Source of the DNA: Escherichia phage UHP65
Length of the DNA stretch: 44,416 bases
Strand: one strand, 5' to 3'
Sequence record: PQ511047.1
In this document: in pieces, positions 1-44,416 of the stretch
Layout: each line of letters opens with the position of its first letter
Position numbering within the stretch: the first letter of the stretch is position 1
Notes under the pieces: model-generated
The model's database searches: none
What the model was told of the DNA's origin: nothing
Seen by the model: the letters and a program-made list of their open reading frames with translations, nothing else
Position numbers and translations under genes: made by a program

Positions 1-1
1 T

Positions 2-271
2 AAGCCACGCGGTCGCATAGACTACCCTGCGGACCATGATTTCTGCAAGCGCTTGGACCGTAACGACAAGGCCCGCCGAGAGTTGCGTGCGAAGTATGAC
101 GCATTCAAGCTGACTGTGACCGGTGTGCTGGACCTGCACAATACTGACAAGAAGCTGATTAAGGCATGGCCTGAAGTTGAGCAATTCATCCCTTACCCGG
201 ACAAGCCAAAATCCACGGCGGTGGCGCTGGACGTGAAAACACTCAACGAGATTTGCGGCATTCCGCGCTAA
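2..271 (+). CDS. hypothetical protein, 3' part; frame open from window base 2, probably continuous with the ORF running off the right end
   Basis: No stop in this frame from base 2 to TAA 269-271; ORF-track start at 53 is an internal TTG; hairpin terminator follows. Confidence 0.5.
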   Translation, partial: KPRGRIDYPADHDFCKRLDRNDKARRELRAKYDAFKLTVTGVLDLHNTDKKLIKAWPEVEQFIPYPDKPKSTAVALDVKTLNEICGIPR

Positions 272-277
272 CGAAAA

Positions 278-300
278 AGGGGCCATTACGGCCCCTTAAT
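278..300. terminator. bidirectional rho-independent-type hairpin between convergent genes
   Basis: aaaaaGGGGCCattaCGGCCCCttaattatt: GC stem flanked by A-run and T-rich run. Confidence 0.6.
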
Positions 301-516
301 TATTTGCTGCAAATCCAGCACCTGCGCCCTTAGCTTCGCCCCGCATTCCATATTTTTCACGTCAATCATCAAATCCTCGTCGGGGTCCGCGGACGGGCTA
401 TCGAACTTGCACGGCGGTCGCAGTGCCGACTCCGTTAGCGGCATCAACGGCGCGTTGCTTGATCCGCACGCGCTCAGCATCAAAACTACAATCAGGGCGG
501 TTAGGGCGCGTAACAT
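286..516 (-). CDS. o-spanin (Rz1-like outer-membrane lipoprotein), embedded in and extending past the i-spanin gene
   Basis: ATG at 516 with AGAGG RBS; signal peptide plus lipobox LSAC; Pro-rich mature part; different frame from overlapping 398..757. Confidence 0.7.
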   Translation of the reverse strand: MLRALTALIVVLMLSACGSSNAPLMPLTESALRPPCKFDSPSADPDEDLMIDVKNMECGAKLRAQVLDLQQIIKGP

Positions 517-757
517 ATTTAACAACCTCTTTCGTGATAGTCCGGTATTCTACGTCGCGGGCTTGTTCTGCCTGCACGGAGCGCTCAACAACTTTAGTTT
601 GCTGCCGTTGGGCTTTTGCTCGTGCCTGTTTCTCAGCCTCCGCCACTACGCCAGCGCGATAGGAGTCCCCTAGCCAGAATCCTACCGCCAGACCGATAAC
701 CAGTCCGATCGCTGCATATTTAATCACGCCATAACCCCCGGTTTTTAAGCTGTGCAA
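398..757 (-). CDS. i-spanin (Rz-like); start uncertain (TTG at 757, or GTG at 727 preceded by GGGGG)
   Basis: N-terminal TM helix YGVIKYAAIGLVIGLAVGFWLG then charged coiled-coil-like region; contains the lipoprotein ORF in another frame. Confidence 0.65.
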   Translation of the reverse strand: MHSLKTGGYGVIKYAAIGLVIGLAVGFWLGDSYRAGVVAEAEKQARAKAQRQQTKVVERSVQAEQARDVEYRTITKEVVKYVTRPNRPDCSFDAERVRIKQRAVDAANGVGTATAVQVR

Positions 758-1823
758 TAGTCATCAGTTCGCCAGAATCGGTAAACATCTTCGGCACTTT
801 CACGCCGCGCATAATCTGGTCGGCGCGCTGCACCCCATATATTTCCTCCAGGATGTGGCGCGGCTGGCGCTGCACCCATGAGAAGAAATCAGTCTGCGCG
901 TCGACTTGCTCACTCAGCAATCTGCCCGCATCAGCCTTCAGTGCCGGACGCTTACCACTGGGCCAATCTTCCATACCTTTGACTTTCCACGTCTCCGTCG
1001 AGCGGCAGCAATAATGTAGCTTGCCCGGACCAGCGCCATATTGTGATCCCGCCACCACTTTTCCGCCTCGCTTCCCTTTCGTATCGGGAGTAACATCAAC
1101 CGGATAAAACAGGCGATCGCGTAGCTGGCACATGGGAGAAGTATGCGTGTCCAATGTAGATAACCATTGGCGACCTTCGAGAATATCGTCATTTGCTTTT
1201 ACCATTAGTTCGCGGGCGGTCGCCGCATAGTGGTTGACTGCGGACTTAACAACGCTTGAGATGGCTTGCGCACTACGACCGCCCAGCGCGCGCCTCACGT
1301 CCGCGATAATTTCCATCGTTGGCTTGCCCTGGATGAATCCGGCGCGCACCTGATTGCCGATCTGCGTCCTGGTCCACTCAGAAAGTGAGTCAGGCCATTG
1401 CATCATCGTATTACCCTGGAACGGGTTTTTCATTGCCGTTGCTGCGATCTGCGCGCCGGTCACTACGCCAACCACCTCGACCGCAGGTACGGCGACCACC
1501 GGCTGGATCGCTGCCGTTAATGTGTCGGCGAGATAATCGGCCTCGGTGTCGGCGAACTCCTGAAGGCTTTCCGCCAACACCTTAAACTCGGTGCGCAGTT
1601 CTGTTTTAACGGTCTTGTCGAGTTGCGTTAACAGAGTGGTAAGTGCCTTGTTGTTCATGGACTTTTTGCCATCAAGTAACTCGGTCAGCTTACCCAGTAA
1701 CGTGGGCCGGAACTTCTCCCACATAGCCAACACCCTCCGCGCCTGGTCATTACTCAGGCGCTGGGTGAAGATGTGACGGCGAATCATTCGATCCGCCATA
1801 TATTGATTAATTGTCTTCGCCAT
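720..1823 (-). CDS. head morphogenesis / minor capsid protein (Mu F / SPP1 gp7-like)
   Basis: 367 aa directly downstream of portal, overlapping its stop; NHYAA...C..L region resembles Mu F family as remembered. Confidence 0.7.
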   Translation of the reverse strand: MAKTINQYMADRMIRRHIFTQRLSNDQARRVLAMWEKFRPTLLGKLTELLDGKKSMNNKALTTLLTQLDKTVKTELRTEFKVLAESLQEFADTEADYLADTLTAAIQPVVAVPAVEVVGVVTGAQIAATAMKNPFQGNTMMQWPDSLSEWTRTQIGNQVRAGFIQGKPTMEIIADVRRALGGRSAQAISSVVKSAVNHYAATARELMVKANDDILEGRQWLSTLDTHTSPMCQLRDRLFYPVDVTPDTKGKRGGKVVAGSQYGAGPGKLHYCCRSTETWKVKGMEDWPSGKRPALKADAGRLLSEQVDAQTDFFSWVQRQPRHILEEIYGVQRADQIMRGVKVPKMFTDSGELMTIAQLKNRGLWRD

Positions 1824-43485: not shown

Positions 43486-43513
43486 ATATTATCAGCGATA
43501 AAAATAATCGCAA
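43486..43513 (-). promoter_or_regulatory. sigma70-like promoter for scaffold/capsid operon (TTGCGA-16-TAATAT)
   Basis: minus -35 = 43508-43513, -10 = 43486-43491. Confidence 0.4.
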
Positions 43514-43520
43514 AATTCGC

Positions 43521-43550
43521 TTGCATTGCGTATGTTGGTTGCATTATATT
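43521..43550 (+). promoter_or_regulatory. sigma70-like promoter (TTGCAT-18-TATATT) with TTGGTTGCA motifs
   Basis: -35 = 43521-43526, -10 = 43545-43550, followed by GGTTGCAC; near-identical layout to promoter at 22799. Confidence 0.5.
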
Positions 43551-43585
43551 GGTTGCACACCAACAGAGATATGAAGGAAAACAAA

Positions 43586-43900
43586 ATGACTAACATGACC
43601 GTAGCAACTCCAGTAGACGCCGCAATGGCCCGTTTCAATAAAGCTACCGTAGCGAATACCTTTACCTTTCACGCAATGCGTAACGCGGAAGCGCTGAATC
43701 TGTGCCAGAGCATGAATGCTTCCGAAGCGGCAAAAGCGGCGATCAACTCCGCAACATTCGATAATCCGGCTTGCGGCCTGGTTCCGGCATCTTTCATAAA
43801 CGCCCTGGTCGAAGCCTTTAACGATTTCATGTGCGTCGATGCCGTTGAAGCTGTATGTGCCCGCTTAACTTCCACCGGTGGCAACATCAAATTCAACTAA
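43586..43900 (+). CDS. hypothetical protein (104 aa)
   Basis: ATG 43586 with AAGGAAA RBS; ORF-track 43526 start is an upstream extension. Confidence 0.5.
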   Translation: MTNMTVATPVDAAMARFNKATVANTFTFHAMRNAEALNLCQSMNASEAAKAAINSATFDNPACGLVPASFINALVEAFNDFMCVDAVEAVCARLTSTGGNIKFN

Positions 43901-43940
43901 ACCAATCGGGGGCGAAAGCCCCTAAAACGAGGACGCAAAA

Positions 43941-44416
43941 ATGAGACTTACTAAAGACATTAAAAATCAGATCCTGGCTAACATCCTGCGCGACCACGAA
44001 ATCGCGACAGAAGCCAAACAAATCATGATGGCCTCGCGCGACCTGGCTTATGCCATTACGCTGGACTGTATGCCGGAAGGCATTCGCACGTTCGCCGAGC
44101 TACTTGCGCGCATTGAAGCAATCCGCGACAACCAGTCGCAGATGTACGGCGTTAGCGTTTACACCGACAAAGCGACGTATCGTTTCGACTCCGATCGCCC
44201 ATATGGTATCGGCAGCGTTTACGACGCCACTTTCGAAATCAACGCAGGCGGTAATGTTCGTACCCTATCATTGAGTGGTGACGGTTACCAATACCGCGTA
44301 CATCGCGGATACTGGGAATATAAATACATGAATAAGCTATCTCCCGATCTTGGCGATATCGTACCGGGGTTTGAGGAAGTTATGCTGGCTTCGGTGTGTG
44401 AAGTGGACAAGGACGG
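43941..44416 (+). CDS. hypothetical protein, 5' part; runs off window end, frame-compatible with the ORF open at window start
   Basis: ATG 43941 with GAGGA RBS; no stop before window end. Confidence 0.55.
   Translation, partial: MRLTKDIKNQILANILRDHEIATEAKQIMMASRDLAYAITLDCMPEGIRTFAELLARIEAIRDNQSQMYGVSVYTDKATYRFDSDRPYGIGSVYDATFEINAGGNVRTLSLSGDGYQYRVHRGYWEYKYMNKLSPDLGDIVPGFEEVMLASVCEVDKD

Follow-up and report, generated by a model that had tools for sequence, protein, structure and literature searches.

The ends of a Dhillonvirus genome record are two halves of nmad5, most likely parted by the loss of 18 base pairs

The public record of Escherichia phage UHP65 (PQ511047.1) begins and ends inside open reading frames. 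Are these two partial frames one gene, so that the record holds one whole genome, and does the circle close exactly where its ends meet? We analysed the whole stretch of 44,416 nucleotides, called the window here. At the right end, an ATG at 43941, with GAGGA 8-12 nt upstream, opens a frame that stays open through base 44416, a length of 476 nt (158 codons plus 2 nt). At the left end, a frame is open from base 2 to the TAA at 269-271. The original prediction held that the two parts join into a single stop-free frame of 747 nt with 248 codons before the stop. Translation confirms this: the joined sequence encodes 248 amino acids and a stop with no internal stops, and codon 159, GG/T, is made of window bases 44415, 44416 and 1.

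The features at the joint are as follows.
43941-44416, plus strand: 5' part of nmad5, codons 1-158 and the first 2 nt of codon 159 (open reading frame and translation, PF18757)
1-271, plus strand: 3' part of nmad5, the last nt of codon 159, 89 codons and the TAA at 269-271 (PF18757, intact orthologues)
152-154, plus strand: AAG codon for Lys210 of the joined protein, the position that maps to Lys216 of SM_A8 Nmad5
record boundary 44416/1: 18 nt absent, AAAATCGCTGCCGATCTA in Zumzum, encoding K-S/A-L-P-I-Y and present in all relatives examined

Frame compatibility alone is weak evidence that the two parts belong together. Because about 90% of the genome is coding, any cut lands in a gene, and unrelated pairs of ORFs on the same strand are frame-compatible one third of the time. 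The observation at the junction is real because of homology: the two halves match complementary parts of the Pfam family Nmad5 (PF18757). Taken alone, the right-end fragment matches profile positions 1-115 (E 5.7e-24) and the left-end fragment positions 122-206 (E 1.6e-31), leaving about six profile positions (116-121) uncovered between them. The search for homologs of the joined product, proposed with the original prediction, returned a match over positions 1-206 of 206 (E 1.3e-60, 205.5 bits), above the gathering threshold of 27 bits over the whole domain. Judged by sequence homology, both end fragments are halves of a single nmad5 gene. Neither the joined protein nor either fragment had an exact match in the protein collection.

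Which genome does this gene belong to? Most of the matching records (160 of 182) are Escherichia phages of the Dhillonvirus group. By ICTV convention, members of a genus share at least about 70% nucleotide identity over the genome length; the window is 93.8% identical to the Dhillonvirus jat (MN850650 / NC_073076) over 100% of its length. Against SM_A8 and Zumzum, 42.4-42.5 kb of its 44.4 kb aligns, at 81-95% identity. Its gene order is that of the genus (terS-terL-portal-head morphogenesis ... scaffold-capsid-tail, with the replication module). The packaging and head genes had been predicted to lie split across the two ends, and they do.
720-1823, minus strand: head morphogenesis (ORF, jat annotation)
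1807-3327, minus strand: portal (ORF, Pfam DUF4055, jat annotation)
3338-4723, minus strand: large terminase, TerL (ORF, Pfam Terminase_6N/6C, PHROGs terminase family, jat annotation)
4723-5274, minus strand: small terminase, TerS (ORF, weak GP3_package, PHROGs terminase family, jat annotation)
41528-42628, minus strand: major capsid protein (ORF; jat, SM_A8 and Zumzum annotations)
42726-43430, minus strand: scaffolding protein (ORF; jat, SM_A8 and Zumzum annotations)

The window's ORFs correspond one to one with the jat annotation, and their order is collinear with SM_A8 and Zumzum round the circle. In whole-genome BLAST this collinearity is broken only by the 18 nt at the joint. An artificial 3-kb joint of end to start aligns in one piece, with 100% cover, in 136 of 158 matching phage records, all 136 of them Dhillonvirus records linearised at other points. 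Because the two halves are one gene and the joint is contiguous in those 136 records, the window is taken as a whole phage genome. We consider it highly probable that the window is a Dhillonvirus genome of about 44.4 kb, from a siphovirus of E. coli, recorded in linear form and all but complete: the cut is arbitrary and lies inside nmad5, and 18 bp most likely went missing at the contig ends. The claim that the window is one full genome therefore stands for the gene complement and for the contiguity of the ends, but not for exact closure, as the circle is 18 nt short at the joint. It is an ordinary Dhillonvirus genome, of a kind already known, with nothing biologically new.

Other genomes of the genus that are linearised elsewhere (HK578 and the SO-1-like cluster, for example Zumzum, SM_A8, JLBYU60, Over9000 and YD-2008.s) are likewise collinear and 44-45 kb long. 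As in the window, their nmad5 lies on the opposite strand between the spanin and head-morphogenesis genes and the scaffold gene. Some of these records open at terS and others at various arbitrary positions; accessory genes and the variable tail-fibre region set them apart from the window. Unlike the window, they carry nmad5 intact: 765 nt encoding 254 amino acids in each of the five named examples.

The missing segment falls exactly and unambiguously at the record boundary in both nucleotide and protein alignments. Whole-genome BLAST leaves Zumzum 17001-17018 unmatched. All 52 of the full-length records listed, out of 138, span 317-318 nt where the query has 299-300 nt, an extra 17-18 nt. Among the records listed, jat alone is split at the gap site, which also lies at its own record ends. 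Do the 18 nt occur elsewhere? The 18-mer has no other occurrence in the window, and the window ends carry no direct terminal repeat or terminal duplication. The circle does not close exactly: 18 nt are missing at 44416/1 and nothing is duplicated.

No carrier of the deletion-type junction was found among the phage, IMG/VR, metagenome or protein collections searched; IMG/VR contained none, against four of the insertion type. The single metagenome match to the deletion-type junction lay on a high-GC contig that is unrelated and shows no similarity to the window, and we set it aside as a chance match. In 35 close protein clusters, with more than 500 member sequences, the protein is 252-254 aa long, and in none is it 248 aa. 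The KxLPIY segment is retained even in homologues of 37% identity and lies in a region of the AlphaFold model with pLDDT above 90. Since no contig or protein in the collections searched carries the deletion and all relatives examined have 254 aa, the 248-aa product is most likely an artefact of the record; the native protein probably has 254 residues. The original prediction of a single 248-aa product across the junction thus probably fails for the native protein: its relatives have 254 aa, and the 18 nt are gone precisely at the joint. In the sequence of events that we favour, 18 bp (six codons, K-S/A-L-P-I-Y) would have been lost at the contig ends, leaving the circle imperfectly closed. The frames across the ends would remain in register solely because the lost length, 18, is divisible by three.

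Could the six codons instead be genuinely absent from nmad5 in this phage and in jat, so that the circle closes as joined and the protein has 248 aa? The frame is kept, PF18757 still gives the joined protein 205 bits, the same state is found in two genomes that are 93.8% identical, and loss of nmad5 is not lethal to the phage (PMC11846954). Against this, the gap falls on the record boundary with single-base precision and unambiguous placement, and a random cut would hit a given indel site about once in 44,000. In the collections searched, the loss is absent from every record, contig and protein whose linear start lies elsewhere, and the segment in question is kept throughout the family and has a confident structure in the model. 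We regard a genuine deletion as improbable.

The relation between the window and jat bears on how two records came to share one gap. The two align end to end in a single piece (window 1-44416 against jat 1-44417) and share their start base, end base, gene order and the 18-nt gap at the record ends. They differ by 2,740 substitutions and five small indels, and about 90% of the differing codons are synonymous. Because the ends and the 18-bp gap are identical, and substitutions are many but indels almost none, the jat record probably served as the template on which the window was built or to which it was trimmed. The tail-fibre variable regions are 100% identical to those of jat, which fits a reference-guided consensus but also natural recombination. 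jat itself was assembled de novo with CLC/SPAdes from Nextera XT reads, without terminus analysis (PMC7552041). The idea that the window is a copy of jat mutated in silico was rejected: about 90% of the differing codons are synonymous, and the Nmad5 variants match natural alleles of other contigs. Residues 60-90 of the window's Nmad5 are nearer to other lineages than to jat. The window's capsid protein is identical to that of a 435-member Dhillonvirus cluster, and its TerL sequence is absent from the protein collection.

Where does the virion DNA end? Judging from its relatives, the virus most likely uses headful (pac) packaging. PhageTerm called headful packaging for the Dhillonviruses Opt-212, UDS3lw and BF9 (PMC9022532, PMC13348001, PMC10059673). 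The relatives' assemblies share no common end: 136 records span the joint, and the starts of 52 public Dhillonvirus records fall into 24 different 500-nt bins, the largest group (18 of 52) being at terS by convention. Circular permutation of this genome agrees with these headful calls and scattered starts, which, rather than the window's own sequence, are what it would rest on. In such a route, the terminase would begin on concatemers and cut once the head is full. Headful cutting would therefore yield terminally redundant, circularly permuted virion DNAs whose reads assemble to a circle, and any linear start would be a convention.

The window's terminase genes provide no packaging call of their own. 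TerL matches only the generic Terminase_6N/6C families. TerS falls below the Pfam cut-offs, with 22.4 bits against 29.4 for GP3_package (P22 gp3) and 20 against 27 for Sf6_terminase. A PDB sequence search with TerL and TerS for a packaging call gave no usable match. P22, Sf6, SPP1 and P1 are phages that package by the headful (pac) route. Their assemblies circularise and give records without a terminal repeat, as in the window; the similarity of its TerS to the P22 gp3 and Sf6 small-terminase models is weak and sub-threshold. Record starts near window position 10.2 kb, at a repeated hairpin/GTCCCG element, were considered as a pac site or terminus. We rejected this because the records there begin about 100 nt upstream of the chosen first gene; HK578 starts at terS.

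A second rival to the loss of 18 bp at contig ends is that the window ends are physical virion ends, cos-like or otherwise fixed and lying in nmad5, from which the last 18 nt, perhaps a cohesive overhang, would have been lost. Window and jat share their end points and lack the same 18 nt. jat was sequenced from Nextera XT libraries, and loss through tagmentation libraries that under-represent molecule ends would explain the common ends of the two phages. However, the three Dhillonviruses analysed with PhageTerm are headful/pac, not cos, and the contigs of welsh, mckay, bob and rolling, Dhillonviruses from the same study and library method as jat, run through the site. About 140 records span it, and among those listed jat alone ends there. 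The site is about 5 kb away from terS, in coding sequence that is conserved, and most differences between the terminase genes of the two phages are synonymous. Physical ends at this site are very improbable. Taken together, there is only a slight chance that either fixed ends, cos-like with an overhang of about 18 nt lost in nmad5, or a genuine KxLPIY deletion is a real feature of a jat-like sub-lineage. The last rival, that the window is a fragment of a larger replicon or prophage with unrelated end ORFs, has only the one-in-three chance of frame compatibility in its favour and is already refuted: the halves are complementary parts of one Nmad5 domain, the joint is contiguous and collinear in 136 genomes, and the length and gene set are those of complete 44-45 kb Dhillonvirus genomes.

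The value of the observation is mainly one of data quality, the genome topology being as expected for a Dhillonvirus. The window and the public jat record hide nmad5, a real gene of experimental relevance, by splitting it across their ends, and naive joining gives a product of 248 aa from which six conserved residues are most likely missing. Users who annotate this sequence, reboot the genome for phage engineering or compare Nmad5 proteins should re-open it at terS and restore or verify the 18 bp. Were the ends fixed or the KxLPIY deletion real, the jat-like lineage would depart from its genus in packaging or in Tmn sensing.

The hidden gene is a known one. Nmad5 is the Tmn-escape locus of SM_A8 and SMS22; a K-to-E change at Lys216 of the SM_A8 protein lets Dhillonviruses escape Tmn defence, and nmad5 can be deleted without killing the phage (PMC11846954). 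The window's joined protein matches the domain in full, and its gene shares 81-94% nucleotide identity with these orthologues. The family name implies a link to clusters of DNA-modification genes; what is reported for a putative role of Nmad5 in DNA base modification is genomic association (PMC9476957, PMC11846954). The window has no thymidine-hypermodification cassette beside nmad5, our search found no fold relative of Nmad5, and PADLOC gave no match for Nmad5 or the 104-aa protein encoded upstream.

This 104-aa gene lies directly upstream of nmad5 on the same strand, and the pair forms a small opposite-strand cassette within the late structural region. A sigma-70 promoter scan of 43300-44416 and 1-800 returned no site. 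The neighbours of nmad5 are these.
43586-43900, plus strand: 104-aa gene, function unassigned (phrog_24635, E 1e-67, no Pfam match; hypothetical in relatives)
277-297, either strand: G+C-rich hairpin with T-runs on both strands, directly after the nmad5 stop, resembling a bidirectional intrinsic terminator
286-757, minus strand: overlapping Rz-like spanin pair (ORFs; orthologues annotated in Zumzum, JLBYU60 and YD-2008.s)

Within the spanin pair, the o-spanin-like ORF occupies 286-516 and has a lipobox-like LSAC, and the larger ORF ends at 398. The jat annotation leaves nmad5 out and calls an antisense CDS in its place, which is probably spurious.

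The window ends fall within a single reading frame. At the right end, a frame begins at an ATG at 43941, behind an upstream GAGGA, and continues for 476 nt to the end of the record; at the left end, a frame open from base 2 runs to a TAA at 269-271. When the ends are joined, codon 159 is GG/T and a 747-nt ORF without a stop encodes 248 amino acids, confirming the coordinates and open frame of the original prediction. No terminal direct repeat was found at the window ends. Taken alone this ORF is weak evidence, because a phage genome is so densely coding that a cut anywhere falls in a gene, and the frames match by chance one time in three. 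The joined protein, however, matches the Nmad5 family (PF18757) over positions 1-206 of 206 (E = 1.3e-60; 205 bits, cut-off 27), and it also matches phrog_1965. In separate scans, the right-end fragment covers profile positions 1-115 and the left-end one 122-206. The two partial ORFs are therefore complementary halves of one gene, nmad5, with about six profile positions unclaimed between them.

The window (54.6% G+C) comes from a Dhillonvirus, one of the HK578/SO-1-like siphoviruses that infect E. coli. Of 158 phage records matching an artificial joint (the final 1500 bases followed by the first 1500), 136 aligned with it in one piece at 100% cover; these 136 are all linearised elsewhere. In whole-genome BLAST, a single end-to-end alignment pairs 1-44416 with 1-44417 of phage jat (93.8%); with SM_A8 and Zumzum the window is collinear round the circle, the sole differences being internal variable regions. 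Its gene set corresponds one-to-one to the jat annotation. The collinear joint and complete gene set support the claim that the window is one full genome, but 18 bp are absent. Late genes are divided between the ends as predicted, with nmad5 and a neighbouring gene forming a small opposite-strand cassette between the two blocks.

Late gene blocks and the nmad5 cassette
277-297: terminator-like hairpin, bidirectional; closes the nmad5 cassette
720-5274, minus strand: terS, terL, portal, head morphogenesis
41528-43430, minus strand: scaffold and major capsid
43586-43900: 104-aa gene upstream of nmad5 (phrog_24635)

Similar hairpins (AAAAAGGGGCC...GGCCCC) occur three times at gene-block boundaries (273-303, 25962-25992 and 38654-38684) and look like reused bidirectional intrinsic terminators. 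An Rz-like spanin pair (286-757, minus strand) adjoins nmad5 about 6 kb from the holin/endolysin genes (6969-7979, minus strand), so the lysis genes lie in two places.

What is missing at the joint? The nmad5 orthologue is 765 nt (254 aa) in Zumzum, SM_A8, Over9000, JLBYU60 and YD-2008.s. Its extra 18 nt, AAAATCGCTGCCGATCTA (K-S/A-L-P-I-Y), align exactly between window bases 44416 and 1, and this placement is unambiguous because a one-base shift breaks the match. By BLAST, Zumzum 17001-17018 is the exact stretch unmatched by the window. With a 300-nt joint as query, 138 records were matched at 80% cover or more. Among the matches listed, 52 of 52 full-length records span 317-318 nt per 299-300 query nt and so contain the 18 nt; a split at the joint is confined to the two jat records. 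Against the phage collection the 300-nt joint matched 145 records at 148 places; the split jat records account for two of the additional places, and one more record has two places. IMG/VR yielded no junction lacking the 18 nt and four containing them. A lone metagenome match to the junction without them was unrelated and due to chance. In a collection of 5.8 billion proteins, the 35 close clusters (more than 500 member sequences) measure 252-254 aa, and none has a length of 248 aa. The missing segment keeps the pattern G-x-x-[LV]-[PS]-[IF]-Y-x-P in proteins as distant as 37% identity, and in an AlphaFold model of a 254-aa orthologue (pLDDT 90, pTM 0.83) it lies in blocks of pLDDT 91-94. The 18-mer was not found elsewhere in the window.

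The simplest explanation is a loss of 18 bp at the contig ends. The frame arithmetic of the original prediction worked only because 18 can be divided by three. A genuine six-codon deletion in nmad5 would also leave the frame open, but it is very improbable that a natural deletion would match an arbitrary cut so exactly, and we regard this explanation as highly unlikely. Physical DNA ends inside nmad5 are scarcely credible. The idea of a genome fragment bearing two unrelated ORFs is refuted by the complementary profile halves, the collinear joint and the whole-genome alignments. The original interpretation is thus right in substance, a single gene and a whole genome, and wrong in one detail: the circle it draws lacks 18 bp, and its 248-aa product is probably not native. 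The window belongs to a well-sampled genus; an already known gene lies at its arbitrary cut point, and the record has a small defect.

How might a loss at contig ends have come to involve both the window and jat? The jat record is a de novo CLC/SPAdes contig from Nextera XT reads, made without terminus analysis (PMC7552041). Between it and the window there are 2,740 substitutions, with about 90% of differing codons synonymous, and the window's variant Nmad5 residues match natural alleles found elsewhere; the window is a different, natural genome, distinct from jat. Over 44.4 kb the two are separated by five small gaps (1, 6, 6, 1 and 1 nt), and they are 100% identical at 26000-27000 and 28500-29000 (tail-fibre and J-protein C-terminal regions), which are otherwise hypervariable and where other relatives do not even align. 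The few gaps and identical patches suggest either a reference-guided consensus or host-range modules that recombined recently. The window was probably assembled against the jat record, or trimmed to it, and would so have inherited its ends and gap; the identical patches could instead come from natural recombination.

One 6-nt indel, at 16990, lies within the region of a 54-nt tandem repeat (2.4 copies, 16869-16995) inside ORF 16284-17081, a Gp2.5-like ssDNA-binding protein by Zumzum annotation; a 21-nt tandem repeat (2.8 copies, 13651-13708) adjoins the other. In jat (MN850650; 1-300 and 43942-44417) nmad5 is unannotated because the record ends split it. In its place stands a CDS, jat_1 (110-286 on the minus strand), which runs antisense to the 3' part of nmad5 and is probably an annotation error.

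Circular permutation, also part of the original prediction, is a property of a virion DNA population and is unreadable from one linear record. Across 52 public records, the start position varies over 24 different 500-nt bins; 18 records, the largest group, begin at terS by convention, and a smaller group near 10.2 kb begins 100 nt ahead of a chosen first gene. TerL matches only the generic Terminase_6N/6C families, TerS scores below threshold against P22 gp3 and Sf6 models, and no PDB relative was found for either. PhageTerm assigned headful/pac packaging to the Dhillonviruses Opt-212, UDS3lw and BF9, and assemblies circularise (PMC9022532, PMC13348001, PMC10059673). Judging from these relatives, the phage most likely packages its DNA from concatemers by the headful route, which would yield terminally redundant, permuted DNA. 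Two intergenic gaps hold an 87-nt direct repeat (10225-10311 and 37661-37747), its first ~37 nt identical (GGGGGCCATTGACCCCCGTCTAGTCTGAAAGACTGGG) and followed by GTCCCG-rich sequence. A 36-nt pair rich in ACGGGAC/GTCCCG lies nearby (37845-37880 and 37924-37959). Both repeats may be regulatory or late-promoter elements.

Dhillonvirus nmad5 has been described before. A single K216E (SM_A8) or K296E (SMS22) substitution allows escape from the Tmn defence system; deletion of nmad5 gives no escape, and nmad5 is toxic when cloned (PMC11846954). The counterpart of the escape lysine in the window is Lys210 (codon 152-154, left end). A search of a clustered protein library yielded 98 representative Nmad5 clusters, conserved mainly in the C-terminal ~90 residues.
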